A stretch of 64,000 bases of DNA, from contig OZ024741.1 of NCBI GenBank assembly GCA_964016885.1, forward strand, positions 91,698,001-91,762,000, written 5' to 3'. The stretch is from Eledone cirrhosa (lineage: Eukaryota). Position numbers and translations under genes: made by a program. The notes under the pieces are model-generated. The model did not search any database. It had not been told where the DNA came from and worked only from the letters and a program-made list of their open reading frames with translations. Below are positions 1,537 to 52,687 of the stretch, in pieces (the first letter of the stretch is position 1; each line of letters starts with the position of its first letter).

Positions 1537-1570
1537 GTTGAAATGGAGTGGAAAAGATGGGAAAGACCAC

Positions 1571-3471
1571 TTACCTTACTTCTCGTAGAGGAAGGATGGT
1601 TTTTCCATCCTTTTCACAGCTTGTGGCCTCCTCCGGAAGGATGTCCTTATAAATCCTCCTGGAGAGTGTTTGTCGGAAGTCTCCGATGTCTTTGGGGAAT
1701 TTTTGTTTTGTGTCGTGTACGTTTTCTCTGTGATGCGAGTGATTTGTATGTGTGGAGGTGGTGTGAACTTTTGGGTTGTTGTGTAGTCTTTTTCTGTGAT
1801 GCTGGTGTTGTGTTGCATGTAGTGTACTAATTGGTTGTTGTTCAAATTTAATGCTGTGTAGTGTGTATCGTTTTGGTTGTTTTGTTTTGTTTGTGTTTGT
1901 TGTGGGTTTGTTTCTGTTTCGCTTTTTGGTGACTTTTGTGGTGTTGGTGATGGTGGTGTTGGGATTAATGATGGTGATGGTGTTGGTGTTTGTGGTCATG
2001 GTGTTGGTGATGCTGGTGTGGATGGTGGCATATCTGTCCTAACTTTTTTGTTTGATAGTTTATTTGTTTCCCTCTGTATTTTGTTTTTGGAGGGGGAGAA
2101 GAGAATTTTTTCTTTTTTGGTTTCTTTTTTTCTTTTTTCCTGATACCGTTTCCCACTCCTCGTCGTCACAATCTGTCTCCAGTTGTGATAGGCCGGGGAG
2201 TGGAAAATCCTCCACATGCGTTGGTTTTGGTTGTGGCGTGGTGGGTGGTGGTGGTGTTGGCTTTGCTACTGTTGCTGGGGTTGTTGCTGTTACAGTTGCT
2301 TCTGTTGTTGCTGCTACAGTTGTTGCTGCCATCTCTACTGCTGGTGGTGTTGATGGTTGAGTCACTGGGGTGGGTAGGACAGGTGGCCTCAACCTTTTAG
2401 CCTGAGGGCAGAAAGCCCTTAGGTGTGTTCCTTCACCACAAACGACACACCTAGGCCTTCTGTCCTCGACAATTACGATGAGGTAGCTGCCGTCAGTGAG
2501 GTCTATTACCTCTGGGATCTCCTCAATGCTTTTTTGGTCCGCTTGGATCAGGAGCTCCATCCAAGATCCGGACCAGTTCTCCTGCTTTTCTTTCACTATT
2601 TCGATTATCTTGGTGTTGTCTTCGATGCCGGCGAGGACGGCAGCTATTAGCCAGGGAATTTCGATGGCCGGTGGAACGTGGGTGACCCTGATCTTTACGA
2701 GTCTCTGGCCACAATAGCTTGGGACGAGTGTGAAGTCGTCACTTCTTAATGGGGCCATGGAGTGTTCTCTAGCCTCCTGTGGTGTTTCAAAGAACACGTC
2801 CACGGTTCCATATTTCTGCCCACGTCTGATGTGGGTTTTTTTTGCCCACACATGTCCCAAAACTTTTTGGATTTGGGACTCGGATGCCCGTTCCACTCGG
2901 CGCGATTTTATATTAATTGTTCGATAAGACACGGTGCATAGGCGCCGATGCTCCATTTTATTAGGGGGGGGTGAGGCTGACCCTGTACCCATCTTTCTTT
3001 ACCATTTGTTTGGCTTCTTCTAATTCCTCCTGAGTTACCTGAAATGCTTCGCACTGTTTTGCTAATCTGGCAAAACTCAGGGTGGTTTTCTTAATTTCAT
3101 TGTTGCAGTTGTTGTTATCGTTATTTTTGTTATTATTAATTTTAGTTTCAGTTGTTGGTGGTGGTGGCGTCACTGATGTTCGGTGTGGAAGAGTTCATTT
3201 TGGTTGAATTCATTTCGATATCACGAGTTAATTTATTTTTTTCTTTTGTTTCTGTTGTCGCGGTGATGGGGGGGGTTGTCGCGGTGGTGGTGATGGCGGC
3301 TTTAACACCTGCAGTCATTGGTAATGGCAGGAAATGAATATCTGCCTGAGGCAAATTTAAAATATTGCTACTGCTTATATTTTTAGTGTTGGCAAACGTA
3401 GTAATATTTACAATGGTGGTGTCGGTGTAAGGTGTTAGTTTGTGAGGAAGGAGTGACTCTGAGTCATCCAT
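1571..3471 (-). pseudogene. Tx1 ORF1 (nucleic-acid binding, CX2CX4HX4C), frameshifted
   Basis: Pieces 3148-3471, 2961-3173, 2060-2992 and 1571-1999 are collinear with ORF1 of family A; contains CVVCGEGTHLRAFC. Confidence 0.85.
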
Positions 3472-3991: not shown

Positions 3992-4128
3992 TACACTATA
4001 TAGAACAGCCAAACTCACCAACACCAGAAACTAGATACACTATATAGAACAGCCAAACTCACCAACACCAGAAACTAGATACACTATATAGAACAGCCAA
4101 ACTCACCAACACCAGAAACTAGATACAC
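3992..4128. repeat. 3 x 44-bp tandem repeat in the Dong leader
   Basis: TACACTATATAGAACAGCCAAACTCACCAACACCAGAAACTAGA at 3992, 4036 and 4080. Confidence 0.9.
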
Positions 4129-7800: not shown

Positions 7801-8228
7801 CACATTCTGAGAAATGGTATGAGCATAGGCCAGAGGCGGTGATGGAGAACAATCAGGTGAAGGTGCTGTGGGATTTTAGGATACAGACGGACAAAAAACT
7901 GGAACACAATAGACCTGACCTGGTGGTTGTGGACAAAGAAAAAAGATCGTGTCTGATTGTGGATGTGGCCTGCCCTTTCGACATGAGAGTGCAAGAGAAG
8001 GAGAGGGAGAAAATTAACCGATACCAGGACCTAAAGTGGGAGGTGAAAAGGATTTGGAACTGCCATGAAGTCAAAGTGATCCCGATTGTCATAGGCGCAC
8101 TGGGGACTATCTCCAAAAGTTTCCAGGGATGGTTAAAGAAAATCGGCCCCTTCACGCTTTTTGGAACGCTTCAAAAGGCATGCTTGCTGGGAACAGCAAG
8201 AACCCTCCGATACGTCCTGAATATCTGA
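4836..8228 (+). CDS. R4/Dong-type polyprotein: N-terminal Myb-like region, reverse transcriptase, CCHC knuckle, PD-(D/E)xK restriction-like endonuclease
   Basis: RTNWTKELN; YRPIT; QGDSLSPLLF; LFMDDLKL; YKYLG; CRICGESEETVAHIVSEC; RHD; RPDLVVVD..IVDVACP..EKINRY. Confidence 0.95.
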   Translation: METRTSCDRLSPNRCPLAQQQEPDCQPNTADVGGRRRRKGARTNWTKELNRTVMQCYLKSNPKERGYRRRMHNIWNEIGLFQLDEQKLAGQARVIRTNRWISELELEELSRENGLEMAGVVCQTSEPVGNEGEEVLRTEKPPEADNDLKTEINNTWNRDTATEEMNADGLGQDSVDILNLVVDELNNDSGRPMNLRFVDRKKLKETTAKVNKVIPYLETRSLHQCNNILKATANTVRKLLGIKARGNNRQERAEPWWKKRLSGQIGEMRNDIGKLESLLNGTLKNIGTKDRLEIKYKTRRKKLNIIIEELKQRIVAKSAKIRRYENRVSQYKQNRMFDNNQKMLFGQLEGKERGNDLIPGAEQTKTFWRGIWEQDVRHNAQAGWIETVQREIGEQAQQQTDLSITVETLKGQAKNLTNWKSPGPDGVQGYWIKHLTSLHPKLTAMFNDCLVSGEVPEWLTKGTTVLIMKDRIKGNDVTNYRPITCLSVMWKLLTSIVSEEIYHHLHTNNLLPDEQKGCRKKSRGTNDQLLIDNMVMGNCRRRHTHLAMGWIDYRKAFDMVPHSWITKSLEIFRVSDNIRQLLGRSMGYWETELTSTGVSLGSVKIKRGIFQGDSLSPLLFVLALMPLTIMLRKVRAGYMLGKGELTINHLLFMDDLKLFGKSEKELDVLVDTVRIFSSDICMQFGISKCRVIVMRRGRLSRSNGIQIPTGEMIKEIDSEERYKYLGVLEADGIKNKKMKELLRTEYIRRVRSVLKSHLNSRNAISAVNSRAVSIIRYSAGILRWNVAEQKEMDRKTRKLLTIYNMFHKRSDVDRLYLRISEGGRGLISIEDCVQMEKNNLYKYVTYSKEPMLRTVLKEGTVGQGMSKEEITSRRKSSLKGKSLHSTFFEKTEFRDPQTWNWLRRGDLKKATEGMLMAAQEQALKTKWLKHHIYKEEASPLCRICGESEETVAHIVSECKHLAQTHYKGWRHDVMDRVIHWHLCKVNNLPHSEKWYEHRPEAVMENNQVKVLWDFRIQTDKKLEHNRPDLVVVDKEKRSCLIVDVACPFDMRVQEKEREKINRYQDLKWEVKRIWNCHEVKVIPIVIGALGTISKSFQGWLKKIGPFTLFGTLQKACLLGTARTLRYVLNI

Positions 8229-8326
8229 GGCTGCAGGTAGTGGCTTGATATTCATTCCAACGGACTTTCCAGTTAACCAACATCAATGACTGAGATTCAA
8301 GGAATAACAACAATAATAATAATAAT

Positions 8327-8702
8327 GATTTCTTTATTAACCACAAGGGTTTACATAAAGTAGACATTAAGGACAGTACAGGACAATACAGGACGGTGCA
8401 AATGGGCATTACTGCGTGTAAAAAAAACAGAGGATGCAATAAAAAAAATAACAATGAAAGATTCCCCAATAGGGGGGGGGGAGACTTCCGAGGCACATTT
8501 GTGGAGAAAGCACATTAAAAGGCCACAGTGACCCTGACCACTAGGGCAAGTGCCCTCTCCCAGTTTTCCACCATTAATTTACAGACACATACTCAGAGTA
8601 GACCCATTCACTCGGGCCATACTTGCTTCTCTCACCCATCTTTCAACAAAATGCTGGGAAGAGAGCACTTCCCTCTCTACCCTGATTTTCCTTTTCAAAT
8701 GA

Positions 8703-8737: not shown

Positions 8738-8986
8738 TTTCTTTATTAACCACAAGGGTTTACATAAAGTAGACATTAAGGACAGTGCAGGACAATGCAG
8801 GACGGTACAAATGGGCATTTCTGCGTGTAAAAAAACAAAAACAGAGGATGTAACAAAAAATAACAATGAAAAATTCCCCAATAGGGGGCAGACTTCGGAG
8901 GGACATTTGTGGAGAAAGCCCAGTAAAAAGCCACAATGACCCTGACCACCAAGGCAAGTGCCCTCTCCCAGTTTTCCACCTTTAAT

Positions 8987-11900
8987 TTACAGATATATGC
9001 TCAAAGTAGGCCCATTCACTCGGGCCATTCTTGCTTCTCTCACCCATCTTTCAACAAAATGCTGGGAAGAGAGCACTTCCCTCTCTACTCTGATTTTCCT
9101 TTTCAAATGAAATTTGAAAAAGTCAATCAGAGCATCACCGAAGAGGTAAGTGCTCGTCTTCAGCCCTTTCAAACGTGTCCACCATACTATCTCTTTCGCC
9201 ATGGCCACCAGGCAGATAAAAACTGCCTGCCCTTCCCGGCTAAAGGAGGAGGGCGGGGCAATCCTCACGATGGACTCAGATGATAGCCGGATCCGTCCTA
9301 AACGCGACAGCAGGTGTTCGACATAAACCCACAAGTCAGCAATTTTCGGACACTGGACGAGTGCGTGCAGGACGGTTTCGTCGCCCTGCGCGCATCTCGG
9401 ACATGCCCGGCTGACGGCACCTCCATGCCTGTAGAGTTTATCCCGAACTGGCAAGGCTCCTCGGTAGCACTGCCAGGCCAGAGATTTCTGGAAGTTGTCC
9501 ATAGGCCCTGGCCCGAAAGTTCTTCCGAAGAGATTGGCTAGTTGATTTTCGTCGACGCCTAGAGTTTCCCCAAGTACGTCGTCGCTCTTCCCCTCCACTA
9601 ATCCTCTATAGAACGCCGAGGTGGAGTTTCCACCGATCACATTGCCCGATTGGTCGAGGGCTGTGAGCGCCTGAAGACATTCCAGTCTCCAGGCGCTCCC
9701 TCTCGGTCTTCGCTTGACCCAGGACTGCAGCTCCGTCAAGGAAACGAGCTGGGGAAAAACGCGTCTAGCAAACGGCGACCACACCTGATCACCGTCGAGG
9801 AAGAGGTGGAGATGTCGTAGCCTGAGCGCGTGCCTGCGCATCATCAGCCACGGCATGCCCAGCCCTCCACGTAGCGGGTGTTGACAACAGATGGACCGCC
9901 TGACCATCGGAGCACGTCCCTTCCACAAAAAGCGAAAGAGCAAACGCTCCAGCGCAGTCAGGCGAGGCTTAGGACAAGGTACGACGGTTAGGCGGTAGCA
10001 GATGACAGACGCGATGTACGCGTTAGCCACCTCCGCTCGACCTTTCAGGGATAGCTTCCTCTCCGCCCATTTCTGGGTGAGAGAAGCCACCCTGCTCGTC
10101 ACCTCGTCCCAGTTTTTGTCCGTCTGGAGGTCCGGACCGAACCAGACCCCTAGCAATTTAACCGGTCCGTCCGTCCAGCGCCCGACGACGCTGTTGGACG
10201 GCATGGACCTGCCTCTCCAGGTGCCGAGCTGCAGGCCCACTGACTTTTCCTGGTTGATCATTGCTCCTGTCACCGCTTCGTATTCTCTTAGTGTAGTGCC
10301 GATCGCCTCGATGTGTTTGGCGTTCGACACCACTACGGTGACATCGTCCGCATATGCTGACACGGATCTTCCGCATCCTAGTTCGCGCGGGACTCCCCTC
10401 AACGTCTCCAGTTTGTGCAGTAATGGCTCGAGAGTCAATACGTACAAGAGGGACGAGAGGGGACATCCTTGGCGGACCGAGCGCATGATGTTGAACGGTT
10501 CCGACAGGTGACCGTTCACTCTCACCACAGAGCAGATGTCGCTGTGCATGGCAGCGATCCAGCCTCTGAAGACGGGCCCAAAGCCAGCCGCCCTCAGGAC
10601 TGCCGCTAGGTAACGATGGTCGACCCTATCGAAAGCTTTCGACTGATCTAAATTGATCAAGGACCCACCCGTGCCAGGTTCCCTAGCTACCCTCTCTACG
10701 ATGTATCGCATGAGGTGGAGGTTGTCGTGGATGGATCTGTCGGGAATGGCGCATGTCTGCGCCTCTCCCACCAGACCACCAACGACAAGCGCCAACCTCT
10801 TTGCTAGCACCTTGGCCAAAATCTTAAACTCTGTGTTTAGCAGAGTTATGGGCCGGAAATTGTCTATGTTATCCCCCTTGTTCGGATCCTTTCTCAGCAG
10901 TGCCACCGCTCCTCGGCTCACAGAACTGGGAATTCTCCCGTTCTGTTGCCAGTTGCAGTAGACGTCCGCCAAGAGGCCTCCGAACAAGTCTGGCATCTGT
11001 ACGTAAAGTTCATAGGGCAGACCATCCAAACCAGGCGATTTACCCCTTGTGCAGCCAGTCATTGCCTCCCGTACTTCAACGGCTGTTATCGGCTTTTCGC
11101 AACACCTCGCCTCAGTGGCCGAGAGCCGCGGCAGTCCGTCGAGGTAGACACTAAAGTCCATCCCTCTACCCGGCCCCCCGCTGCCCCCGAACAGCTGAGC
11201 GAAGTGTCGCTGAAAAGCTTCACACATTTGCCCGGGATCGAGTAGCCAGCGCCCGTCGTGGTCCACCAAAGACCGGATCGTGGCTTTGTTGCCACGACGC
11301 GCCTCCGCCACTCGGGCCCATTGAACGGCTTTCGTCCCCTCGTGTCTGAGAGCACGCACCCTAGCTCTAACAACGCAGCCTTCGTGCTTTGCATTGAAGA
11401 ATTGGTCAAGGGCCAATTTCGCCGCAAGCACGTCGGTCGCAATGCCTTTGCTAAGCGCCTCGTCTAATTTTCTAACTAGTTCTCCCTCTGCTCTATTTTT
11501 CTCTATTGCTAAAGCCTTACTAAACCTAATCGATTCTATTCTAATCGCTCTTTTCAGAGCAAACCACCACTTGTTGTTGACGATGGCCCCCGTCAACGCC
11601 CGCTTAACTAGTTCGCTAATCCGGTCTCTGTAGGCCTTGCGCGCTGGTAAGGACGCGTTTAGCTTCCAGTAGCCGGGTCCTCGTCTATGAAACCTATCTA
11701 AGTCAAGCACACAGATCACGAATTTGTGGTCCGTGTAGCTGACTATCTTGAATTGTGGACAGCCTATGCTAGACCTATCTATTTCCCTACAAAATACTCT
11801 ATCTAGATATGATCTGGATGACCCTATGCGGTTTGTCCAAGTCCACATTGGCACATTCGGGAAATCCAATCGGTACCTGTCAGACAGTTCAAAACGCCTG

Positions 11901-12406
11901 AGCAGGTTGGTGAGGCTCTTGCACCCTCCACCCCTATCCGCTAATCCCACACAGTCCCAGCGTGCATCTAAGATCCCGTTCCAGTCGCCCACTAACACTA
12001 AAGAGCGGGACGTTCCAAGAAAGGTCTCCAGACGCCGGAAGAAATCAGGCCGCCCTGCTCCTGTCGGGGCATAGACGGCCACTAGCCTGAAAGCTTGCCC
12101 GTCTCCGCTGGTCACGTCCAGCACCACCAGCTTACCCTCTGGGTCCAGGAAGATGGCCCGTATGGCGAGATCCAAACCTCTCCGAAAAAGCACAGCAACT
12201 CCTCCACCCGATCCAGGACGGCTGGGAGATGCGTACACATCGTAGCCGCCGAAGATCGGTACGAAGGCCCGTGCTTCGGAGATTCTGGTCTCGCTGATGG
12301 CCACTACATCTATGTTTAGTGACCTGAGGTCGTTGAGCAGGTGACCCTGCTTCCATGACGACCCCAAGCCACGCGCATTTATGCTGCCTATTCTGAGTGA
12401 GGTCAT
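8987..12406 (-). CDS. Tx1 ORF2: apurinic-like endonuclease + reverse transcriptase + C-terminal CCHC
   Basis: SINARGL, ISETR, GDWN, YLDRVF, TDH; YWKLN; FRPITLLN, DQSKAFDRV, RQGCPLS, YADD; CPRC..ETVLHALVQC. Confidence 0.96.
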   Translation of the reverse strand: MTSLRIGSINARGLGSSWKQGHLLNDLRSLNIDVVAISETRISEARAFVPIFGGYDVYASPSRPGSGGGVAVLFRRGLDLAIRAIFLDPEGKLVVLDVTSGDGQAFRLVAVYAPTGAGRPDFFRRLETFLGTSRSLVLVGDWNGILDARWDCVGLADRGGGCKSLTNLLRRFELSDRYRLDFPNVPMWTWTNRIGSSRSYLDRVFCREIDRSSIGCPQFKIVSYTDHKFVICVLDLDRFHRRGPGYWKLNASLPARKAYRDRISELVKRALTGAIVNNKWWFALKRAIRIESIRFSKALAIEKNRAEGELVRKLDEALSKGIATDVLAAKLALDQFFNAKHEGCVVRARVRALRHEGTKAVQWARVAEARRGNKATIRSLVDHDGRWLLDPGQMCEAFQRHFAQLFGGSGGPGRGMDFSVYLDGLPRLSATEARCCEKPITAVEVREAMTGCTRGKSPGLDGLPYELYVQMPDLFGGLLADVYCNWQQNGRIPSSVSRGAVALLRKDPNKGDNIDNFRPITLLNTEFKILAKVLAKRLALVVGGLVGEAQTCAIPDRSIHDNLHLMRYIVERVAREPGTGGSLINLDQSKAFDRVDHRYLAAVLRAAGFGPVFRGWIAAMHSDICSVVRVNGHLSEPFNIMRSVRQGCPLSSLLYVLTLEPLLHKLETLRGVPRELGCGRSVSAYADDVTVVVSNAKHIEAIGTTLREYEAVTGAMINQEKSVGLQLGTWRGRSMPSNSVVGRWTDGPVKLLGVWFGPDLQTDKNWDEVTSRVASLTQKWAERKLSLKGRAEVANAYIASVICYRLTVVPCPKPRLTALERLLFRFLWKGRAPMVRRSICCQHPLRGGLGMPWLMMRRHALRLRHLHLFLDGDQVWSPFARRVFPQLVSLTELQSWVKRRPRGSAWRLECLQALTALDQSGNVIGGNSTSAFYRGLVEGKSDDVLGETLGVDENQLANLFGRTFGPGPMDNFQKSLAWQCYRGALPVRDKLYRHGGAVSRACPRCAQGDETVLHALVQCPKIADLWVYVEHLLSRLGRIRLSSESIVRIAPPSSFSREGQAVFICLVAMAKEIVWWTRLKGLKTSTYLFGDALIDFFKFHLKRKIRVEREVLSSQHFVERWVREARMARVNGPTLSIYL

Positions 12407-12441
12407 GTTTAAAATAGAGTGGAAAAGATGGGAAAGACCAC

Positions 12442-14538
12442 TTACCGTACTTTTGGTAGAGGAGGGATGGTTTTTACATCCCTTTTCACTTGATCGTCTG
12501 GTGAAGGGACCGTTGAATCGTCCCTTCGGCTGGTCGTCGGCTCTTCTAAGAGAATGTCTGAGTATACTCTTCGATTGATGGTTCCTCCTAGGTCCCTGAA
12601 ATCACCAACTGCGTTGGGGAATTTCGTTTTAATGTTTGTGTATTGTTTCTGTGCTATTTTTAGCAGTCTTATGTTAGTTGGCGTTTTGATTGGTGCTGGT
12701 ATTATGTAGTCCTGTTGTGAAATGTCTGTGTGTTCAATTATGTAAGTCATTAGTTTCTTGTTGTGTGTATTTATTGCCGTGCATTTGTTTTTCTGGGGGT
12801 GGGGTGTGGTTCTGCTATTTTCTTGTCGTTGTTGCTGGGTGTGTGTGTTTTGTTGTTGTGTTTGCGATGTTGGTGCTTGTGGTGGTGGTGTTGAAGGTGT
12901 TGTTGGCGGTGGGGTTGTCGCCGGTGGTGATGGTGGTGCTAGTGTCGGTGGTGATGGTGTTGGTGTTGTTGCTGCTGTGGGTCTCTTTGCAGTAGACTTT
13001 ACCCTTTTCTCATTTCTTTCCTCCCTTTTCAAAGGCGACGATGCGCTGCTTCTGCGTTTGTGCCTTCTTGCGACCTTTTGCCATCCCTCTCCCACCTCAC
13101 ACTCCATGTCTGATTCTGTGAGGTCGGGGAGGGGTACCAGCTCCACTCTTTCACTTGTTGTTGTTGGTGATGTTTGCACTGGAGTCTCTGTTGCAGCTGC
13201 ATTTGGTATTGCTGTTGTTGTTGTTAATATTTCCACTGCTGCTGCTGTTTTTGATTTCCGTGGCGTGGGTATGGGTGCCACGGACCTATCGTTCCTGGTT
13301 GCCGCTTGTCCTGTTGCTGGTAGCCGTGGAGCCGGATTCGGAAGGAGGGGGGTTTTCTCCTTTCTCAGGGTCTTCTCGTTGCAGAAGGCCCTGAGGTGAG
13401 TCTTCGATCCACAGCGAAAGCATTTCGGGCGTTTGCCCTCAACACTTATGGGCAGTTGAGTGCCGTTATCGAAGTCTATCACATCCGGGATAGCTTCGAT
13501 GCACTCCTGGTTGGTTTGGATTAGCATCTCAATGGAGGAGCCGACCCAATCTTCTCTTACTTTTTTCTGTACTTGCAGTACAGTTGTTTTGTCCTCGATT
13601 CCGACGAGGACAGACGCGGCCAGCCAAGAAGGGGTCATTCCGGGGGGGACGTGGGTCAGTTTGACCCTCACAATTTTTTGCCCGCAGTAGGAGGGCACCA
13701 ACACCATTTCCTCGCTCCTTAGGGTCACTACTGATTGGGCCTTTGCCTCCTGGGGTGTGGCAAAAAGTACGTCTACGGTGGCATATTTTTTGCCTCGGGT
13801 GATGTGCGTTTTCCGCTGCCACACAGACCCCAAGGCTTTTTGTATTTGGGCCTCTGTGGCTCTTTCCACCCTACGGGATTTTGTACTTACTGTACGGTAC
13901 GTGACCGTACAGTGCTCTTGGGTTTTGAAAAATTTTTCCGCTGCCTTGCAGATTGCTCGGTGTCCGTTCTTTGTCACCATCTTCTTCGCTTCCTCTAATT
14001 CCTCATTTGTTATGAGGATTGTTTCCAAATTTTTCGCAATACCTGCAAATGAGATTGGTTTTTCTCTGCTGTTGTTGTTGTCGTCAGAGCTGCTGGTACT
14101 TTTGTTGTTGCTGCAGGTACTACGACTACTGCCTCCGCCGCTGTTGCTGTGGTTGTTGTTGGTGTTGCTGCTGCTAATGCTGTTGTTGTTTATGCTGCTG
14201 GTGATGCTGTTGCGGCTGCTACTGTTGTTTTCATTGTCACTGTTGCTGTTGTTATTACGGCTGCTACTGCTATTATTCCTGACGTCAGACGAATGAACTG
14301 GGTTTTCGTATTTCCCGCACACCTGTTTCGTCGCTGTCGTCGTCGTCGTGGAGAAACCTTGCACGCTTTGCACGAGACTTTTCTTTTCTTTCGTCACTTG
14401 CGAAAGAGAAGGGAGGGAGAGAGACACATTTAAAGAAGGGAGGGAGAGAGACAATCTTCTCTCTGCTGTAGTGATGATTGAGGAAGAAGAAGACGGAATG
14501 AGTGGGAGTGACGTATGAAATTTCTTTTTCGTAGCCAT
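12442..14538 (-). CDS. Tx1 ORF1 (RRM-like core, CCHC zinc knuckle, N/S- and T/P-rich low-complexity arms)
   Basis: Open frame, CFRCGSKTHLRAFC. The first ATG (MATKKK) is at 14538; the ORF-track start at 14574 is a TTG. Confidence 0.9.
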   Translation of the reverse strand: MATKKKFHTSLPLIPSSSSSIITTAERRLSLSLPSLNVSLSLPSLSQVTKEKKSLVQSVQGFSTTTTTATKQVCGKYENPVHSSDVRNNSSSSRNNNSNSDNENNSSSRNSITSSINNNSISSSNTNNNHSNSGGGSSRSTCSNNKSTSSSDDNNNSREKPISFAGIAKNLETILITNEELEEAKKMVTKNGHRAICKAAEKFFKTQEHCTVTYRTVSTKSRRVERATEAQIQKALGSVWQRKTHITRGKKYATVDVLFATPQEAKAQSVVTLRSEEMVLVPSYCGQKIVRVKLTHVPPGMTPSWLAASVLVGIEDKTTVLQVQKKVREDWVGSSIEMLIQTNQECIEAIPDVIDFDNGTQLPISVEGKRPKCFRCGSKTHLRAFCNEKTLRKEKTPLLPNPAPRLPATGQAATRNDRSVAPIPTPRKSKTAAAVEILTTTTAIPNAAATETPVQTSPTTTSERVELVPLPDLTESDMECEVGEGWQKVARRHKRRSSASSPLKREERNEKRVKSTAKRPTAATTPTPSPPTLAPPSPPATTPPPTTPSTPPPQAPTSQTQQQNTHTQQQRQENSRTTPHPQKNKCTAINTHNKKLMTYIIEHTDISQQDYIIPAPIKTPTNIRLLKIAQKQYTNIKTKFPNAVGDFRDLGGTINRRVYSDILLEEPTTSRRDDSTVPSPDDQVKRDVKTIPPLPKVR

Positions 14539-15032
14539 GTTGTTTTTTTGTTTAAAATGAAATTTTGGGTACAAAACCCCAATAACTGGTTATTTAACCC
14601 CGAAGGGCCAAATAACGGACAGAAAGACCCCTCTCACGAGGAGGAGGGTGTCTTTATCAACAATTTGGTTCAAGTTTTAAACAATTTACAATTGTTTTAA
14701 CGGTTAAAAATTACTATACCTTACAGAGCCGAGCCTCCGTCAACCATGGCATTCAATAATAATAATAATAATAATAATGATTTCATTTATTGGCCACAAG
14801 GGCCGACATATAGGGGACAACACAATAGACAGGGACAGTGGGGGTTTACATAGAGATCGAGTAAGTATAAATAACAAAAAAAACAAAATAACAATGAAAA
14901 TACAACAATGAAAGTTCCCCAATAAGAGGGATCACCACCCAGGGTTGACTCAAGCACCCCACCAGTCCTGAGCCACCCGACGCTCCTAGGGCACCCGGGA
15001 AGGGCACCCCTCTCCTTCTCGAATTCACCAGC

Positions 15033-18000
15033 CTACAGGCGCATGATCAGAGTAGGCCCACTCACGCGGGCCATTCTCGCCACATTCACCCACCTTTCAG
15101 TAAATGTACTGGGGGGCAGCACTTCTCTCTCCACCCTCACCTTCCTTTCCAAGTGAAACTTGAAGAAGTTGATGAGGGATTGGCCGAAGAGAAAAGTGTC
15201 TGTCTTCAGTCCTTTCAACCTGGTCCACCATGCAACCTCTTTCGCTACTGCCACCAGGCAGAGGAAAATTGCCTGCCCTTCCTGACCAAAAGAAGGCGGC
15301 GGGTCAATCTTCACTATGGACTCGGACGATAGCCGGATCCGTTCTACACGCGACAATAGCTGTTCGACATAACCCCACAAGTCAGCAATGCACGGACACT
15401 GGACGAGTGCGTGCAGAACGGTTTCGTCGCTCTGCGCGCATCTCGGGCAGGTTCGTCTGACAGCACTTCCGTGCCTGTAGAGTTTATCCCGAACCGGCAG
15501 CGCCCCCCGGTAGCACTGCCAAGCGAGGGATTTCTGGAAGTTATCCATCGTCCCCGGCTCGAAAGTCCTCCGGAACATACTGGTCAGTTCTACTTCGTTG
15601 ACGCCCAGAGCCTCTCCTAGTACGTCATCGCACTTGCCCTCCACTAATCCTCTATAGAAATCTTGAGTGGAAGTTCCACTGACCGCATTGCCCACCTTGC
15701 AGAGTGCAGTGAGCGCCTGGCAACATTCCAGATGCCAGTCGCCCAGTCTCGGTCTCTTCTTGACCCAGGACTGCAGCTCAGTCAAAGAGATGAGCTGCGG
15801 AAAGGCCCGTCTAACAAACGGCGACCACACCTGTTCACCGTTTAGGCAAAATATCTGGAGATGTCGCAGCCTCAGCGCATGTCTGCGCATCATTAGCCAC
15901 GGCATGCCCAGCCCTCCACGAAGAGGGTGCTGGCAGCAGATGGACCGCCTCACCAACGGGACCCGTCCCCTCCACAAAAATTTGAAAAGGAGCCGTTCCA
16001 AATTGGCGAGGCGTGGACGGGGGCAAGGCACGACGGTCAGGCGGTAGTAGATGACGGACGCGATGTACGCGTTCGCCACCTCCGCCCGCCCTTTCAGTGA
16101 TAGCTTTCTCTCAGCCCATTTCTGGGTGAGGTTGGCTATCCTGCTCGTCACCTCGTCCCAATTCTTATCCACCTGGAGGTCTGGTCCGAACCAAACCCCG
16201 AGCAACTTTACCGGTCCGTCTGTCCAGCGCCCAACGACGCTGTTGGACGGCATGGACTTGCCTCTCCAGGTGCCGAGCTGCAAGCCCACCGACTTTTCCG
16301 GGTTAAGTTTTGCTCCCGTCAACCTTTCATATTCCTCCAAATGGGTGCGGATCACCTCGATTTCCGAGGTGTCCGACACCATCACGGTGATGTCGTCCGC
16401 ATAAGCGGACGCAGCCTTTCTACGTCCCGGTTCGAGCGGGATGCCCTGCAACAACTCCAGCTTCCGCAGTAGAGGCTCAAGAGTCAATACGTACAGAAGT
16501 GAGGAGAGAGGGCACCCTTGACGGACCGATCGAGAGATCTGAAACGGTTCCGAGAGGTGGCCATTAACTTTGACCACCGAGCGGATGCCGCTGTACATTG
16601 CAGCGATCCAGCTTCTGAAGACGGGGCCGAAGCCAGCCGCCTCGAGGACAGCCTCCAAGTACCGATGGTCGACCCTATCGAATGCTTTCGATTGATCTAA
16701 ATTGATCAGAGCCCCACCGAAGCCAGGTTTGCACCCAACCCTCTCTATGATGTATCGCATGAGGTGGAGGTTGTCGTGTATGGACCTGGTCGGGATTGCG
16801 CAAGTTTGCGCCTCCCCAACCAAATCTTTGACGACAAGCGCCAACCTTTTCGCTAACACCTTGGCCAAAATCTTAAACTCTGTGTTGAGCAGGGTTATGG
16901 GCCTGAAATTATCTAGTGTGTCCCTCTTGTTCTCGTCTTTCCTTATCAGCGTCACTACGCCACGGCTCACAGAACTGGGAATGCTCCCGTTCTGCTGCCA
17001 GTTGCAGTAGAGCGCTTCGAGGAGATCGGAGAACAAGTCTGGCATATTTACGTAAAGCTCGTAGGGCAGACCATCCAAACCGGGTGACTTGCGACTCGAG
17101 CAGCCGACAAGGGCGTCCTGAATTTCGGCTGATGTTATCGGCTCTTCGCAGCGCTCAGCGTCGGCCGTCGAGAGGCGTGGCAAGCCGTCGAGGTAGGGAC
17201 TGAAGTCCGCCGCCGTCTCCGACTCACCCATCCTCCCGAACAATCGAGCAAAGTGCTGGCGAAAGGCCTCACACATCTGCTTGGAATCGCTCAGTTCGTG
17301 TCCATCTCGATCCGTCAAAGACCGAATTGTGGTTTTATTTCCACGCTGCGTCTCTGCAAAGCGAGCCCATCGGGCAGCTTTGGTTCCCTCGTTCCTCAGA
17401 GCACGCGCCTTAGCTCTGACAATGCAACCTTCGTGTTTCGCATTGAAGAAATGGTCTAGTGCCATTCTCGCCGCTAGCACGTCTGTTGCAATGCCACTAC
17501 AAATAGCCTCGTCTAACTTAGCTATCAGCCCCTCCTCCTTTCTATTTTTCTCTATTGCTACTTCTTTGCTAAATCCTATCGAGGTTGCTCTAATCTCTCT
17601 TTTGAGTGCCCCCCACCACCTGTTGTTGACAACCCCCCCTGTCAACTTTTGCTTAACTAAGTTGTTGACCCGGTCCCTGTAAGCTTTACGTGCCGGAAAC
17701 GACATGTTTAGCTTCCAGTAGCTAGGTCCTAACCTACGTGTCTTATCTAGGTCGACCATACAGATCACAAGCTTGTGATCTGAATAGGCAACCGTTTTAA
17801 AATGTGGACATCCTACACTATTTCTATCTCTTTTCCTAATGAAAATCCTATCTATGTACGATCTAGATGACCCTATGCGATTGGTCCAGGTCCATACTGG
17901 CGCATTAGGGAAATCTAGTCGGTACCTGTCAGACAGTTGAAACTGGCTGATCAGGTACTTGAGGCTTTTGCACCCCCCGCTCCTATCAGATACTCCCACA

Positions 18001-18452
18001 CAATCCCAGCGTGCTTCTAAGATGCCATTCCAATCCCCTATTAACAGTAAAGGGCGAGACGTAAGCAGAAAGTTTTCCAGGCGCCTAAAGAAGTCCGGCC
18101 GACCGGCCCCAGTAGGGGCGTAGACGGCCACCAGTCTAAAGGCACCACCTTCGCTATTGCTCACGTCCAGGACCACCAACTTTCCGTCAGGATCCCGGAA
18201 GATTGACCTTACCTCGAGATCCAGACATTTCCTAAACAGCACAGCCACTCCACCTCCCATTCCCGGCCGACTAACAGATGCAAAGATCTGATAATCGTCG
18301 AAAATCGGCGCCAGTGCGCGTGTGTCGGAAATTCTGGTCTCGCTGATGGCAATTACATCCATTCCTAGTGACCTGAGGTCGTTGAGCAAGTGACCTTGCT
18401 TCCAGGGCGACCCCAGGCCACGAACATTTAAACTTCCTACTCTTATGGCCAT
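15033..18452 (-). CDS. Tx1 family B ORF2 (APE-RT-CCHC), 1139 aa
   Basis: SLNVRGL, GDWN, SDH, RQGCPLS, YADD, CPRC..HALVQC. Confidence 0.96.
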   Translation of the reverse strand: MAIRVGSLNVRGLGSPWKQGHLLNDLRSLGMDVIAISETRISDTRALAPIFDDYQIFASVSRPGMGGGVAVLFRKCLDLEVRSIFRDPDGKLVVLDVSNSEGGAFRLVAVYAPTGAGRPDFFRRLENFLLTSRPLLLIGDWNGILEARWDCVGVSDRSGGCKSLKYLISQFQLSDRYRLDFPNAPVWTWTNRIGSSRSYIDRIFIRKRDRNSVGCPHFKTVAYSDHKLVICMVDLDKTRRLGPSYWKLNMSFPARKAYRDRVNNLVKQKLTGGVVNNRWWGALKREIRATSIGFSKEVAIEKNRKEEGLIAKLDEAICSGIATDVLAARMALDHFFNAKHEGCIVRAKARALRNEGTKAARWARFAETQRGNKTTIRSLTDRDGHELSDSKQMCEAFRQHFARLFGRMGESETAADFSPYLDGLPRLSTADAERCEEPITSAEIQDALVGCSSRKSPGLDGLPYELYVNMPDLFSDLLEALYCNWQQNGSIPSSVSRGVVTLIRKDENKRDTLDNFRPITLLNTEFKILAKVLAKRLALVVKDLVGEAQTCAIPTRSIHDNLHLMRYIIERVGCKPGFGGALINLDQSKAFDRVDHRYLEAVLEAAGFGPVFRSWIAAMYSGIRSVVKVNGHLSEPFQISRSVRQGCPLSSLLYVLTLEPLLRKLELLQGIPLEPGRRKAASAYADDITVMVSDTSEIEVIRTHLEEYERLTGAKLNPEKSVGLQLGTWRGKSMPSNSVVGRWTDGPVKLLGVWFGPDLQVDKNWDEVTSRIANLTQKWAERKLSLKGRAEVANAYIASVIYYRLTVVPCPRPRLANLERLLFKFLWRGRVPLVRRSICCQHPLRGGLGMPWLMMRRHALRLRHLQIFCLNGEQVWSPFVRRAFPQLISLTELQSWVKKRPRLGDWHLECCQALTALCKVGNAVSGTSTQDFYRGLVEGKCDDVLGEALGVNEVELTSMFRRTFEPGTMDNFQKSLAWQCYRGALPVRDKLYRHGSAVRRTCPRCAQSDETVLHALVQCPCIADLWGYVEQLLSRVERIRLSSESIVKIDPPPSFGQEGQAIFLCLVAVAKEVAWWTRLKGLKTDTFLFGQSLINFFKFHLERKVRVEREVLPPSTFTERWVNVARMARVSGPTLIMRL

Positions 18453-18481
18453 GCTGGCAGGATGAATGGGAGAGGAAAGGT

Positions 18482-20344
18482 TTACTTACCTTCCGGGGTC
18501 TTGTGAAGGTCGGGTGGTTCGACCTCCATGGTTTGTGGGGTTTCTTTTGGGAACCCCTTTAATAGTCTTGACGTGGGTTTTACGTTCGGGGTTCCCACAT
18601 CCCGAGGAAAGCTCTTTCGAATTTCTTTGTATGAAGCGAGCGACATTCGCATCAGAAGCAAATTATCTGGTACGCGAAATGTGCTCGCTTCAAATGTTTC
18701 CCCGTCTTTTTCGATGTTTGTGCTTCGTGCTACATGGGCCATCAATTCCTTGTTGGCCCTTCTGGCAAGCACGAAGTTTTTAATGTTTTGTTGCTCGGGT
18801 TTTATTTGTTCGTGTGATTGTGGTGGTGATAGCTTTGTTAGTGTTGTTTCTATTGTGTCTGCGTTTGTTGTGGGTGGGGTGTCTGTAGTTTCTGATGTTT
18901 GTGTGTCTATTTGTTCTTGTGTCTGTTTAGCTTGTTTGCGTTTGGGGGATTTTGGTGGTTGTGTTGGTGATGCTGTGGGGAAAATGTTTGTGTGGGTGGT
19001 GTGTGTATTTTTTTTTGTGGGGGTGTTTGTGCTTTGTGGATTTCTTTTTTTTTTGTGTTTTGTTTTTTGTATTTTGGGGGACTTTGGTTTTCCCTCATCT
19101 TCACTGCTGGAGGATGAGGGGTCTGTGGCTGTGAGCGTGTTTGTGTCTGAGTGAGTGTTTATGTTCTTGTTCGTGTGTGTATTTTGGGGGGGAGGGGGAA
19201 TGGGAGAGCTTTCCTCGTTTCCCCCCTGGGTGTGCAATTTTGGTGGTTCCATTGTTGACGGTGTTGCTGGTGGTCCTTGTCCCGGCGTCGCCAGCAGTGG
19301 AATCTTTCGACCCCTTGCGCTTTTCGGCAGTTGAGGGCAGAAGGCTCGCAAGTGTGTCGTTTCCCCACAAAGGAAACAATGCGGCCTTTTGCCCTCAGTC
19401 ATTATATGCAACACCCTCCCGTTTTGGAGGCGGATGTGGTCCGGGATTGTTTTTACGTTTTCGGGTCTGATTTGGAGCAGTATCTCCAGATCAACCCCGG
19501 ACCAGTCGTCCCTGGCAGTTCTCGTTGCCTCTACCGGGACTGTATCCGTTCCTTCCACGATTACGCAACCCAGGAGCCACCACATATCAAGTCCTGGTGG
19601 AATCCTGGGAATGCGCACACGTGCTATTCGTTTTCCCATGTGGGAGGGGTACATTATGACCTTGCTGGTTTTGCAAGGGGTCATTGAATGCTTCACAGCG
19701 AGGGCTTCAGACTTGAACAGCACCGAAACGGTGCCGTATTGCCTGCCCCTCTCTATGAAGTCTGTGTCCTCTCTGATGTGTTTCAGTGCGGCTTCTATGT
19801 CAGCTTGGGCGATTATCGCTGCCCTCTTTGTCTCTACTGAGATGCATCTGAAATGCACCGTTCTTTTTTCCACTGCCTCAATGGCTTCTGCCGGGACAGT
19901 TAAGTTTGCCCAGGTCTGCTCTTGATTTATGATTTTCCAGGCCTGGGCCAACTTTTCCTCTCTGTTGGTTAAGTCGATGCTGTAGCATGGTCTCCTTTTA
20001 GCCGCTGCCACAGCAGCGAAAGTGTTCTTGTTGGTGTTGTCACTGTTGTTGTTCTTGTTGGTGTTGCTGCTGCTATTGCTGTTGTTGTTCTCCCCTGTGT
20101 CGTGGTTACCTTCTGTGCTGTTGGCCTTGTTGGTGCTCTCGCTATTACCACCTTCTGCGCTGTTCGGCTTGTTGGTGTTGGTGTTGTCGCTGTTACCACC
20201 TTCCGCGCCGCTCGGCCCGTTGGTGCTGGCACTGTCGCTGCTCACATTCGTGCTGGTGGCGCTCCTCGCCTCACCTCTCCTCTCAACGCTCAAGTCGCCG
20301 TTGCACGACAGCAGACCCGCCTCTAGGGGGCGTGGCTCCGCCAT
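18482..20344 (-). CDS. Tx1 family B ORF1, 620 aa
   Basis: CFLCGETTHLRAFC knuckle; core aligns weakly to family A ORF1 (RGRQYGTVSVLF vs RGKKYATVDVLF). Confidence 0.9.
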   Translation of the reverse strand: MAEPRPLEAGLLSCNGDLSVERRGEARSATSTNVSSDSASTNGPSGAEGGNSDNTNTNKPNSAEGGNSESTNKANSTEGNHDTGENNNSNSSSNTNKNNNSDNTNKNTFAAVAAAKRRPCYSIDLTNREEKLAQAWKIINQEQTWANLTVPAEAIEAVEKRTVHFRCISVETKRAAIIAQADIEAALKHIREDTDFIERGRQYGTVSVLFKSEALAVKHSMTPCKTSKVIMYPSHMGKRIARVRIPRIPPGLDMWWLLGCVIVEGTDTVPVEATRTARDDWSGVDLEILLQIRPENVKTIPDHIRLQNGRVLHIMTEGKRPHCFLCGETTHLRAFCPQLPKSARGRKIPLLATPGQGPPATPSTMEPPKLHTQGGNEESSPIPPPPQNTHTNKNINTHSDTNTLTATDPSSSSSEDEGKPKSPKIQKTKHKKKRNPQSTNTPTKKNTHTTHTNIFPTASPTQPPKSPKRKQAKQTQEQIDTQTSETTDTPPTTNADTIETTLTKLSPPQSHEQIKPEQQNIKNFVLARRANKELMAHVARSTNIEKDGETFEASTFRVPDNLLLMRMSLASYKEIRKSFPRDVGTPNVKPTSRLLKGFPKETPQTMEVEPPDLHKTPEGK

Positions 20345-20553
20345 GTTTTTTTGAGAAAAAAATTATTATTTTTTTCAAAATAAAGTTCAAATATTTGGGC
20401 CAAAAGGCCCAAATATTATGAGTTATTCCTTCACAGGATACAAATTAATGTCTTATAATGCTTCAGCGGTACAAAAAATAAACAATTCTCTACAATTAAT
20501 CCTCAAAAATTGCTTACTCACGGAGCTTCAAAAAACGTACATCCACTTTCGTC

Positions 20554-20603
<50 letters not shown>

Positions 20604-20864
20604 TTTCTTTATTAACCACAAGGGTTTACATAAAGTAGACATTAAGGACAGTGCAGGACAATGCAGGACGGTACAAATGGGCATTTCTGCGTGTAAAAAA
20701 AACAAAAACAGAGGATGTAACAAAAATAACAATGAAAATAACAATGAAAAATTCCCCAATAGGGGGGAGACTTCGGAGGGACATTTGTGGAGAAAGCCCA
20801 GTAAAAAGCCACAATGACCCTGACCACCAAGGCAAGTGCCCTCTCCCAGTTTTCCACCTTTAGT

Positions 20865-24284: not shown

Positions 24285-24319
24285 GTTTAAAATAGAGTGG
24301 AAAAGATGGGAAAGACCAC

Positions 24320-26392
24320 TTATCGTACTTTTGGTAGAGGAGGGATGGTTTTTACATCCCTTTTCACTTGATCGTCTGGTGAAGGGACCGTTGAATCGTC
24401 CCTTCGGCTGGTCGTCGGCTCTTCTAAGAGAATGTCTGAATATACTCTTCGATTGATGGTTCCTCCTAGGTCCCTGAAATCACCAACTGCGTTGGGGAAT
24501 TTCGTTTTAATGTTTGTGTATTGTTTCTGTGCTATTTTTAGCAGTCTTATGTTAGTTGGCGTTTTGATTGGTGCTGGTATTATGTAGTCCTGTTGTGAAA
24601 TGTCTGTGTGTTCAATTATGTAAGTCATTAGTTTCTTGTTGTGTGTATTTATTGCCGTGCATTTGTTTTTCTGGGGGTGGGGTGTGGTTCTGCTGTTTTC
24701 TTGTCGTTGTTGCTGGGTGTGTGTGTCTTGTTGTTGTGTTTGTGATGTTGGTGCTTGTGGTGGTGGTGTTGAAGGTGTTGTTGGCGGTGGGGTTGTCGCC
24801 GGTGGTGATGGTGGTGCTGGTGTGGGTGGTGATGGTGTTGGTGGTGTTGCTGCTGTGGATCTTTTTGCAGTAGACTTTACCCTTTTCTCATTTCTTTCCT
24901 CCCTTTTCAAAGGCGACGATGCGCTGCTTCTGCGTTTGTGCCTTCTTGCGACCTTTTGCCATCCCTCTCCCACCTCACACTCCATGTCTGATTCTGTAAG
25001 GTCGGGGAGGGGTACCAGCTCCACTCTTTCACTTGTTGTTGTTGGTGATGTTTGCACTGGAGTCTCTGTTGCAGCTGCATTTGGTATTGCTGTTGTTGTT
25101 GTTAATATTTCCACTGCTGCTGCTGTCTTTGATTTCCGTGGAGTGGGTATGGGTGCCACGGACCTATCGTTCCTGGTTGCCGCTTGTCCTGTTGCTGGTA
25201 GCCGTGGAGCCGGATTCGGAAGGAGGGGGGTTTTCTCCTTTCTCAGGGTCTTCTCGTTGCAGAAGGCCCTGAGGTGAGTCTTCGATCCACAGCGAAAGCA
25301 TTTCGGGCGTTTGCCCTCAACACTTATGGGCAGTTGAGTGCCGTTATCGAAGTCTATCACATCCGGGATAGCTTCGATGCACTCCTGGTTGGTTTGGATT
25401 AGCATCTCAATGGAGGAGCCGACCCAATCTTCTCTTACTTTTTTCTGTACTTGCAGTACAGTTGTTTTGTCCTCGATTCCGACGAGGACAGACGCGGCCA
25501 GCTAAGAAGGGGTCATTCCGGGGGGGACGTGGGTCAGTTTGACCCTCACAATTTTTTGCCCGCAGTAGGAGGGCACCAACACCATTTCCTCGCTCCTTAG
25601 GGTCACTACTGATTGGGCCTTTGCCTCCTGGGGTGTGGCAAAAAGTACGTCTACGGTGGCGTATTTTTTGCCTCGGGTGATGTGCGTTTTCCTCTGCCAC
25701 ACAGACCCCAAGGCTTTTTGTATTTGGGCCTCTGTGGCTCTTTCCACCCTACGGGATTTTGTACTTACTGTACGGTACGTGACCGTACAGTGCTCTTGGG
25801 TTTCGAAAAAATTTTTCGCTGCCTTGCAGATTGCTCGGTGTCCGTTCTTTGTCACCATCTTCTTCGCTTCCTCTAATTCCTCATTTGTTATGAGGATTGT
25901 TTCCAGGTTTTTCGCAATACCTGCAAATGAGATTGGTTTTTCTCTGCTGTTGTTGTTGTCGTCAGAGCTGCTGGTACTTTTGTTGTTGCTGCAGGTACTA
26001 CGACTACTGCCTCCGCCGCTGTTGCTGCTAATGCTGTTGTTGTTTATGCTGCTGGTGATGCTGTTGCGGCTGCTACTGTTGTTTTCATTGTCACTGTTGC
26101 TGTTGTTATTACGGCTGCTACTGCTATTATTCCTGACGTCAGACGAATGAACTGGGTTTTCGTATTTCCCGCACACCTGTTTCGTCGCTGTCGTCGTCGT
26201 CGTGGAGAAACCTTGCACGCTTTGCACGAGACTTTTATTTTCTTTCGTCGCTTGCGAAAGAGAAGGGAGGGAGAGAGACACATTTAAAGAAGGGAGGGAG
26301 AGAGACAATCTTCTCTCTGCTGTAGTGATGATTGAGGAAGAAGAAGACGGAATGAGTGGGAGTGACGTATGAAATTTCTTTTTGGTAGCCAT
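24320..26392 (-). pseudogene. Tx1 ORF1 with premature stop
   Basis: TGG>TAG at 25502-25504 (PPGMTPS*) versus W in A1/A3. Confidence 0.9.
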
Positions 26393-26643: not shown

Positions 26644-26904
26644 TTTCTTTATTAACCACAAGGGTTTACATAAAGTAGACATTAAGGACAGTGCAGGACA
26701 ATGCAGGACGGTACAAATGGGCATTTCTGCGTGTAAAAAAAACAAAAATAGAGGATGTAACAAAAATAACAATGAAAATAACAATGAAAAATTCCCCAAT
26801 AGGGGGGAGACTTCGGAGGGACATTTGTGGAGAAAGCCCAGTAAAAAGCCACAATGACCCTGACCACCAAGGCAAGTGCCCTCTCCCAGTTTTCCACCTT
26901 TAGT

Positions 26905-30324: not shown

Positions 30325-30359
30325 GTTTAAAATAGAGTGGAAAAGATGGGAAAGACCAC

Positions 30360-46887: not shown

Positions 46888-52687
<5,800 letters not shown>

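Follow-up and report, generated by a model that had tools for sequence, protein, structure and literature searches.

A splice-donor-like motif on the ORF1 stop of Tx1-type retrotransposons from Eledone cirrhosa and its predicted long-range pairing with the 3'UTR

Non-LTR retrotransposons of the Tx1 clade include Kibi and Koshi, which target the microsatellites (TC)n and (TTC)n (PMC4494074), and the L1-Tx1 elements of Octopus vulgaris, of which 13 families were recently active (PMC13282606). As far as the passages covered from those papers describe them, these elements resemble the ones studied here in having two ORFs, an APE endonuclease, a reverse transcriptase (RT) and a zinc finger, a CCHC-bearing ORF1, and insertion at microsatellites; the difference from Kibi and Koshi is the target, which here is (ATT)n. 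In the passages covered, the Tx1 literature describes neither a splice donor on the ORF1 stop nor a helix between the ORF1-ORF2 junction and the 3'UTR.

Splice donors that act within retroelements are known from other groups. In the Ty1/Copia element EVD of Arabidopsis, U1 at the donor blocks premature termination of the full-length RNA and also permits splicing (PMC5580714). EVD is like the present elements in carrying a conserved donor at the end of gag, but it is an LTR element with a single ORF and a proven, used intron, and its passages covered describe no antisense arm, whereas the elements here, known from DNA alone, lack a conserved acceptor. A retained 5' splice site motif has been found to block export and polyadenylation of unspliced mRNA (PMC4380460, from the passages covered). 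Work on human L1 splice sites and SpIREs reports, in the part covered, that a functional donor is kept, that RNA structure or a protein is proposed to keep U1 away from it, and that splicing harms retrotransposition (PMC5860796); that donor lies in the 5'UTR, and no long-range partner is named in the same passages. In Lyosin, by the portion of the text covered, an L1 ORF1 is spliced to host exons and the ORF1 exon ends in an in-frame 5' splice site (10.1101/2024.04.25.591049), which is a domesticated host exon rather than a feature of an active element.

A structural parallel comes from tombusviruses, in which, according to the passages covered, an RNA-RNA interaction over ~3.5 kb joins a region just 3' of the first stop to the 3' end, flanks the polymerase ORF, and has been proposed as a quality control against truncated genomes (PMC3234231). 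Those are cytoplasmic RNA viruses that use in-frame readthrough, whereas here ORF2 starts at an ATG of its own in a frame that differs between elements, and a donor motif lies within the arm. Our literature search, with most subscription papers and Repbase Reports outside its coverage, returned no report of such a helix for a LINE.

Two element lineages and the donor-like motif

The window, the whole 64,000-nt stretch of contig OZ024741.1 analysed here, carries full and partial elements of an A type (copies A1, A2, A3 and a fragment), a B type, and an element A' that shares the A-type junction.

12442..14538, minus strand: A1 ORF1, 698 aa, with a CCHC knuckle and no Pfam match
8987..12406, minus strand: A1 ORF2, 1139 aa, with APE endonuclease, RT and zf-RVT
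18482..20344, minus strand: B ORF1, 620 aa
15033..18452, minus strand: B ORF2, 1139 aa, 75% identical to A ORF2
8326-8702: A-type fragment, 5'-truncated, carrying the 3' arm described below
12440..12446, minus strand: A1 donor-like GGTAAGT (GT 12445-12444, TAA 12444-12442), phase 2, rank 1 of 313 GT
18484..18490, minus strand: B donor-like GGTAAGT (donor 18489, ORF1 stop 18484-18482), phase 1, rank 1 of 290 GT
1574, minus strand: A' donor, phase 2
30363, minus strand: A3 donor, intact

The Pfam families Exo_endo_phos, RVT_1 and zf-RVT are matched in ORF2 of A and B, and ORF2 matches L1 endonuclease structures at 1e-5 to 1e-7. ORF1 gave no match in a Pfam search; a CCHC motif is visible in A, A' and B, and the Atlas neighbours of ORF1 are zf-CCHC and ZCCHC3-like (0.88-0.93). 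An (ATT)n tract precedes all six 5' ends, and five of five 3' ends lead into (ATT)n. From this architecture and from the call made in a sequence-only reading that preceded this work, the elements are likely Tx1 clade (L1 group) non-LTR retrotransposons. None of seven window proteins is present in the protein collection; a contig pattern search for the DNA of relatives gave 92 matches with no confirmed relative, and plasmids and phages gave no match.

In A1, A3, A' and B alike, GGTAAGT straddles the stop codon of ORF1. Ranked with a crude frequency matrix, the site is the best-scoring donor of A1 and B, as listed, and of A3 (312 GT); among the 157 GT of A', one other site, at 1265, scores equally high. 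The sequence-only reading had placed this donor in three ORF1 types, with coordinates (12445, 1574, 18489), motifs, intron lengths and frames that all proved correct. The motif is indeed in all three, but A3 had been overlooked and the three types reduce to two lineages. Counted upstream from the ORF1 stop, stop included, A' matches A at 35 of 40 nt, and farther upstream at just 5-8 of 20 per block; since the match is confined to the neighbourhood of the stop, the A' donor arrived with the A-type junction. A' ORF1 above ~1615 is a different type, and the 3' end of A' falls outside the window. By this comparison the independent lineages are two (A and B), not three, the A' junction being shared with A by descent.

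Conservation at the nucleotide level, also claimed earlier, holds, B retaining 7 of 7 nt in another codon phase. The 7-mer as such is not enriched across the window (11 matches against 7.6 expected; 16 of 100 shuffles reach 11). The probability of GG..GT around a TAA stop is 0.004, and that of retaining 7 of 7 motif nt between A and B, given a 4-fold-site identity of 0.57, is 0.02, values that are overstated for a splicing role because the helix described below may itself preserve part of the motif. A2 is ORF1-dead and without the GT, as previously remarked (premature TAG in ORF1; G>A at donor +1, 24323); being one inserted copy with 11 private substitutions, it was dropped as evidence. An element-wide depletion of donors is absent against synonymous shuffles, and a 5'UTR intron ending ahead of ORF1 was rejected for want of a common acceptor.

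Complementarity between the junction and the proximal 3'UTR

In both A and B the donor, together with the spacer that follows, is complementary to a stretch 3.4 kb away, within the first 10-45 nt past the ORF2 stop. The arms are as follows.

12419..12446, minus strand: A1 5' arm, with donor, ORF1 stop and 23 nt of spacer; 25 bp, -37.0 kcal/mol
8953..8979, minus strand: A1 3' arm, beginning 8 nt past the ORF2 stop; the part that pairs with the donor is the distal 8 nt
18450..18499, minus strand: B 5' arm, with the donor exon side, ORF1 stop, spacer and ORF2 ATG; 40 bp, -52.0 kcal/mol
14993..15045, minus strand: B 3' arm, which runs across the ORF2 stop (15035-15033) into the proximal 3'UTR
1548..1575, minus strand: A' 5' arm, identical to A1, including the donor
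30337..30364, minus strand: A3 5' arm, including the donor
26871..26897, minus strand: A3 3' arm
24297..24324, minus strand: A2 5' arm, donor +1 G>A, helix weakened to -31.3 kcal/mol
20831..20857, minus strand: A2 3' arm
8545..8571, minus strand: fragment 3' arm, the same as in A1, with the remaining 3'UTR different at 30 of 234 columns

When the junction is scored against non-overlapping windows of its element, the 3'UTR arm is its first-ranked partner (of 61 windows in A and 57 in B), and the 3'UTR arm in turn ranks the junction first (of 81 and 72), so that the best partners are reciprocal in both families. The junction-3'UTR duplex reaches -43.2 kcal/mol in A and -53.3 kcal/mol in B; shuffling either arm 1000 times produced no such energy in A or in B. 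Corrected for composition, the pair comes first of 10,296 long-range combinations of windows in each family (z -5.5 for A, z -6.0 for B); by raw energy the B pair ranks first and the A pair lies outside the top 8. The complementarity between the distant arms thus exceeds chance. It persists in A and B though the arms have diverged, in two lineages, which are too few for a covariation statistic. Pairing the A junction with the B UTR yields -27.7 against the cognate -43.2 kcal/mol, and the B junction with the A UTR -42.5 against -53.3; family specificity is one-sided, the B junction still pairing well with the A UTR.

Within the A lineage the arms do not vary: the 3' arm is the same in A1 and the fragment at 28 of 28 columns, against the 30 of 234 differences elsewhere (P about 0.02), and the 5' arm is identical between A1 and A' at 30 of 30 (P 0.04-0.09). 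When 3.9 kb of A is folded as a whole, the minimum-energy structure contains the helix, and forbidding it costs 9.4 kcal/mol; the B global fold favours a partner within ORF2 (18194-18215), and imposing the helix costs 7.1 kcal/mol. A cruder search for ungapped inverted repeats does not place the helix among the 25 longest in A or B, and an Rfam scan gave no match at gathering score. In A the predicted helix engages donor positions -1..+6 and covers the whole U1 site; in B it engages -3..+1 and +5..+7 and covers most of the site. Folded alone, the junctions are unlike between families, and in A1, A3, A' and B local hairpins are predicted already to pair donor -1/+1. The stop codon of ORF1 lies inside the helix as well, as does the ORF2 ATG in the case of B, and a translational role fits equally. 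The spacers were correctly described before as pyrimidine-rich (74-79% as measured), a composition better explained by an arm of the predicted long-range helix than by a polypyrimidine tract.

Readings of the motif and the helix

The reading that we tentatively prefer, at a probability of roughly 0.4, is that U1 binds the nascent RNA and the 3'UTR arm then masks the donor, so that the full-length RNA stays unspliced and exportable. The motif, its rank, and the persistent complementarity are observed and the helix is predicted; from them we infer U1 binding, its timing and its benefit. While ORF2 is being transcribed the 3' arm would be absent and U1 snRNP free to load on the donor, where it would likely guard a long intronless transcript against early termination. 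As soon as the 3'UTR has been made, the 3' arm, whose sequence in A resembles the 5' end of U1, would out-compete U1, for which the computed duplex is just -10.4 to -12.2 kcal/mol. Masked in this way, the full-length RNA would be neither spliced nor retained in the nucleus through an exposed donor and would serve as bicistronic mRNA and as template, with ORF2 started from its own ATG; transcripts ending before the 3'UTR would keep the donor exposed and be discarded. Held more tentatively still is the wider proposal of a LINE with its own U1 mimic, whose 3'UTR arm would loop out the 3.4 kb of ORF2 and silence the donor on the complete transcript, as a full-length check gating export and retrotransposition.

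Several observations weigh against this masking model: the B global fold prefers another partner, the A pair is outside the top 8 by raw energy, family specificity is one-sided, and only two lineages are involved. The local hairpins on donor -1/+1 mean that access of U1 to the nascent RNA would not be free, and poly(A) hexamers are scarce in ORF2 (none in A and one in B, with 0.7 expected), which counts against a suppressing role for U1, as there would be little to suppress. A U1 site suppressing premature polyadenylation had been offered as an alternative in the sequence-only reading and comes close to the masking model. The clustering of poly(A) signals was rejected as general support: amino acids account for the hexamers within the final 360 nt of ORF1 in the case of A (P 0.44), and less well in that of B (P 0.013).

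The main rival, which we consider rather doubtful, is that the helix acts in translation, holding the end of ORF1 and the spacer against the 3'UTR and the stop of ORF2. Either ORF2 would be made only once an ORF1 ribosome melts the helix (gated reinitiation), or the helix would let both proteins be released beside the 3' tail; the likeness to a donor would be a by-product of a TAA stop within a G-rich arm. Both arms start at stop codons and the B arm takes in the ORF2 ATG, the ORF2 Met stands at its canonical place in A, B and P0096 (the sole ORF1-ORF2 read-through found), three of the seven motif bases in A come from TAA, and the tombusvirus 3.5-kb interaction is described, in the passages covered, as controlling polymerase synthesis (PMC3234231). 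A by-product does not account well for B, which retains all seven bases in the other codon phase with a TAA that does not serve as the stop of ORF1 and stays unpaired in the predicted helix, nor for a site that is the best-scoring donor in both A and B. Readthrough or frameshifting into ORF2 was rejected, as ORF2 is shifted relative to ORF1 by -1 in A and B and by +1 in A', with no shift in P0096, and in B a stop closes the ORF2 frame shortly upstream.

It is improbable that the donor likeness arose by accident and that the complementarity merely reflects pyrimidine/purine bias or an ancient inverted duplication. The scan did cover many features, only two related lineages are involved, the B global fold is without the helix, and the helix is missing from the 25 longest ungapped inverted repeats; chance nevertheless sits poorly with a composition-corrected first rank in A and B despite diverged arms, with a duplex energy that no shuffle matches, and with arms invariant inside the A lineage.

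Equally improbable is a donor joined to a distant acceptor to give a subgenomic, ORF1-only mRNA in the style of copia/EVD, where the helix would either loop out ORF2 or determine how much of the RNA is spliced. The candidate acceptor in A is textbook, ~130 nt past the 3' arm and 85 nt ahead of the end:

8821..8845, minus strand: A1 3'UTR acceptor-like site, T tract plus CAG with its G at 8821, rank 1 of 437

It is kept in the fragment copy, and its use would extend ORF1p by 20 residues. This alternative, also named in the sequence-only reading, is weakened by B, which has no AG behind its T tract at the homologous place (last AG 14949); the donor lies at the end of the structural gene as in EVD, but a conserved acceptor for a short mRNA was not found. 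An acceptor-like spot near the ORF2 C-terminus (9240, 15282) was rejected, amino acids explaining it (P 0.23, 0.13). The A helix covers the donor rather than flanking it, and the tblastn matches within the window include no ORF2-less copy.

Least probable, and graded unlikely, is the first proposal made for this junction, a 52-53-nt intron joining ORF1 and ORF2 into a gag-pol-like polyprotein:

12393..12445, minus strand: A1 proposed 53-nt intron, in frame, with a weak acceptor and containing the ORF2 ATG (12406)

Splicing to 12393, 1523 or 18437 does take out 53, 52 or 53 nt and, for A, A' and B respectively, enters the ORF2 frame. The earliest AG past the A spacer is the in-frame one, and the final ORF1 residues of A (hydrophobic, Arg) resemble the ORF2 residues taken out. 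Human introns of 37-65 nt are known, frequently with poor sites (PMC4463651, passages covered). By one crude score, however, the A acceptor ranks 31 of 437 and the B acceptor 173 of 416, another score giving 15 and 191, and the two fall in different, non-homologous codons. The in-frame TAG of B stands behind three nearer AGs, and the best of these, CAG 18454 (rank 1-3), defines an intron of 36 nt whose removal leads to a stop 3 codons on, bearing out an earlier caveat; as had also been cautioned, the in-frame B product would lose residues aligned to the first strand of the L1 endonuclease (Pfam from residue 7, PDB from residue 4). The consensus 5' splice site is present, but a pyrimidine tract beside a first conserved in-frame AG is seen loosely in A and fails in B. 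ORF2 keeps its own Met, and no fused protein was found in protein sets whose coverage of these families is thin. A search for longer proteins matched ORF1 in 0 of 224 long candidates, which is weak evidence; an ORF1-like lead occurs in 0 of the 37 matches (of 161 stored) that hold the first endonuclease motif, 31 of which start at a Met 3-12 residues before it, although ORF callers favour such starts. An ORF1 C-terminal profile run over 833 candidates returned P0096 alone, itself in the query, and P0096 retains a 9-codon spacer and the Met and is therefore unspliced. P0096, which looks decayed, has Gly-Glu ten codons before the ORF2 Met, compatible with a phase-1 GTGAG donor, a weak hint from protein only.

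For gene predictors, the donor invites false ORF1-ORF2 fusions. For LINEs themselves, the locus touches two open questions, how a long intronless RNA is kept intact and unspliced and how ORF2 is produced as a second cistron. Long-range control of this kind is known from RNA viruses, and a helix that ties the end of ORF2 to its start, to a consensus donor and to the ORF1 stop would be a compact handle on both questions, since its two arms of ~30 nt are short enough to disrupt and restore in a reporter.

The donor on the ORF1 stop

Between positions 1 and 32,700 the minus strand carries head-to-tail elements separated by (ATT)n, with APE, RT and zf-RVT domains in ORF2 and all of the testable features of Tx1; the labels L1/Tx1 and Dong/R4 are in part our assumption. 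ORF2 of families A and B is 75% identical in protein and 57% identical at 419 four-fold sites, and only one relative carries a name: a gene model of Octopus sinensis, at 64% across 18% of the query, which makes an octopus the likely host.

Elements of the array (minus strand, within 1-32,700)
A', A-type junction with a different ORF1 type; 3' part beyond the window edge
5'-truncated A-type fragment (8326-8702)
A1, copy of family A
B, second family
A2, copy of family A
A3, copy of family A

The sequence-only reading had placed a splice donor over the ORF1 stop in three ORF1 types, and GGTAAGT is indeed found there in A1 (12445), A' (1574) and B (18489, in another codon phase than A), as well as intact in A3 (30363), which was absent from its list; A2 has lost the donor G and has a premature stop in ORF1. 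The three types nevertheless represent only two lineages: over the 40 nt leading up to the stop, A' agrees with A at 35, and further upstream at background level, so its donor is not independent. By a crude matrix the site is the best-scoring donor among 313 GT in A1 and 290 in B, and the 7-mer shows no enrichment across the window. For two lineages, the chance of the motif around a TAA is ~0.004 and that of neutral retention ~0.02; RNA structure could inflate the retention. The donor is real.

The A' ORF1 type switches ~40-45 nt above the stop (about 1575-1620, against 12446-12490 in A1), and the reading frames of the common tail differ at its upstream end. A second strong donor lies 271 nt into ORF2 at Gly-Lys codons (12135 in A1, 1265 in A', 30053 in A3) and is missing from the homologous codons of B. 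Each element type also has a donor-like site some 30-45 nt in from its 5' end (about 14720, 20521 and 3643, minus strand), after a common GCTC motif; none is among its own element's top 8 donors.

Ahead of ORF1, all three 5'UTR types have a GC-cored hairpin at a similar position with different sequences.

5'UTR hairpins (windows picked by eye)
14587-14614, minus: A1, z -3.1, 0/200 shuffles
20390-20420, minus: B, z -5.7, 0/200 shuffles
3520-3538, minus: A', z -2.3, 6/200 shuffles

Single-ORF RT elements of another clade, presumably R4/Dong-like, lie on the plus strand (4080-8329, 32691-35489, 48351-52634, 55145-58568) and occupy these (AAT)n arrays too, in opposite orientation; two clades thus have one microsatellite target in common.

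Pairing of the junction with the 3'UTR

In both families a whole-element scan finds the best partner of the pyrimidine-rich spacer behind the donor at and just past the ORF2 stop.

Predicted helices
12446-12419 with 8953-8979, minus: A, 25 bp, three stems
18499-18450 with 14993-15045, minus: B, 40 bp

The distal stem of A is predicted to pair donor positions -1 to +6 with a stretch we call U1-like on a partly assumed U1 5' end, while the B helix would engage the donor at -3..+1 and +5..+7 as well as the spacer and the ORF2 ATG. Either would hold ORF2 in a ~3.4-kb loop, its start adjoining its stop.

With the donor included the duplexes reach -43.2 (A) and -53.3 kcal/mol (B), and shuffling either arm 1000 times never gives energies this low. 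The arms are reciprocal best partners and, by composition-corrected energy, the best of 10,296 pairs in both families (all pairings of 50-nt windows separated by 300 nt or more), although by raw energy the A pair is not first. Arm sequences have diverged between A and B, and cognate pairing is stronger than cross pairing (-27.7 and -42.5 kcal/mol). Within the A lineage the 3' arm is invariant at 28/28 positions, against 30 differences in 234 flanking, and the junction arm at 30/30. The helix is part of the A global fold; that of B favours a site within ORF2 by 7.1 kcal/mol, and the helix is not among the 25 longest hits of an ungapped repeat search. A conserved long-range helix is, as a computed structure, well supported in two lineages.

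The competing B site (18194-18215, minus strand), the second-best junction partner, overlaps a further strong donor-like site (18212). In A', the common tail and spacer may form a local hairpin (-25 kcal/mol, 0/150 shuffles) that can be an alternative to the long-range helix. The next-best pair common to both families (ORF2 offsets about +180 / +2305, z -4.6 and -4.2) may stem from common protein sequence, both arms being coding. In the B 3'UTR, about 14865-14875 (minus strand), a short complement of its own GTAAGTA donor stands where A has a 3'UTR acceptor; it may serve as a further masking site or be a coincidence.

Possible roles of donor and helix

Our preferred reading, at a probability of roughly 0.4, is that U1 would first have access to the donor and the 3'UTR arm would then mask it; two states are proposed because a donor kept only to be hidden would more simply be lost. 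During ORF2 transcription U1 would be able to bind (computed duplex -10 to -12 kcal/mol); with the 3'UTR transcribed, its much more tightly pairing arm would cover the donor, preventing both splicing and any block to export and polyadenylation. PMC5580714 describes U1 at the EVD donor as guarding full-length RNA, and PMC4380460 an exposed donor in unspliced mRNA as blocking export and polyadenylation. Support for the U1-bound state is thin, since ORF2 nearly lacks poly(A) hexamers and predicted folds already involve the donor in local hairpins.

Somewhat less probably, the helix would gate ORF2 translation and the donor would be a by-product, a gating for which the 3.5-kb tombusvirus interaction offers a parallel (PMC3234231); masking and gating are not mutually exclusive. 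Frameshifting and readthrough were ruled out, as ORF1-ORF2 frames vary. It is doubtful that the donor yields an ORF1-only mRNA, for although A has its rank-1 acceptor at 8821, B is missing one of this type; chance or relic status is equally doubtful.

Least likely is the 52-53-nt intron proposed to fuse ORF1 to ORF2: its lengths (53, 52 and 53 nt in A, A' and B) and frames check out, but acceptors are weak, codons do not match and no fused protein appears among the candidates searched. The in-frame AG of A, though the first past the spacer, ranks 15 or 31 of 437; the in-frame TAG of B comes only 191st or 173rd of 416 and has three closer AGs ahead of it, of which the best would yield an intron of 36 nt and run into a stop 3 codons on. 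These acceptors fall in different codons, and the B product would lack the residues opening the endonuclease match. A protein search found fusion in 0 of 224 long candidates and in none of 37 matches with the first endonuclease motif (of 161 stored). The read-through relative P0096 joins the ORF1 C-terminus to ORF2 via a 9-codon spacer and Met, whose retention indicates that it is unspliced; it is a decayed relative read through in frame, and at the place of Gly-Lys-stop in B it has Gly-Glu. Very short human introns exist (PMC4463651), so the length by itself is no bar to such an intron.

The masked donor proposed here resembles one that human L1 retains and that is proposed to be concealed by RNA structure (PMC5860796), and the U1 proposal resembles the two uses of U1 in copia elements (PMC5580714). 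None of the papers listed by the literature searches concerned a LINE with an ORF1-stop donor paired to its own 3'UTR.
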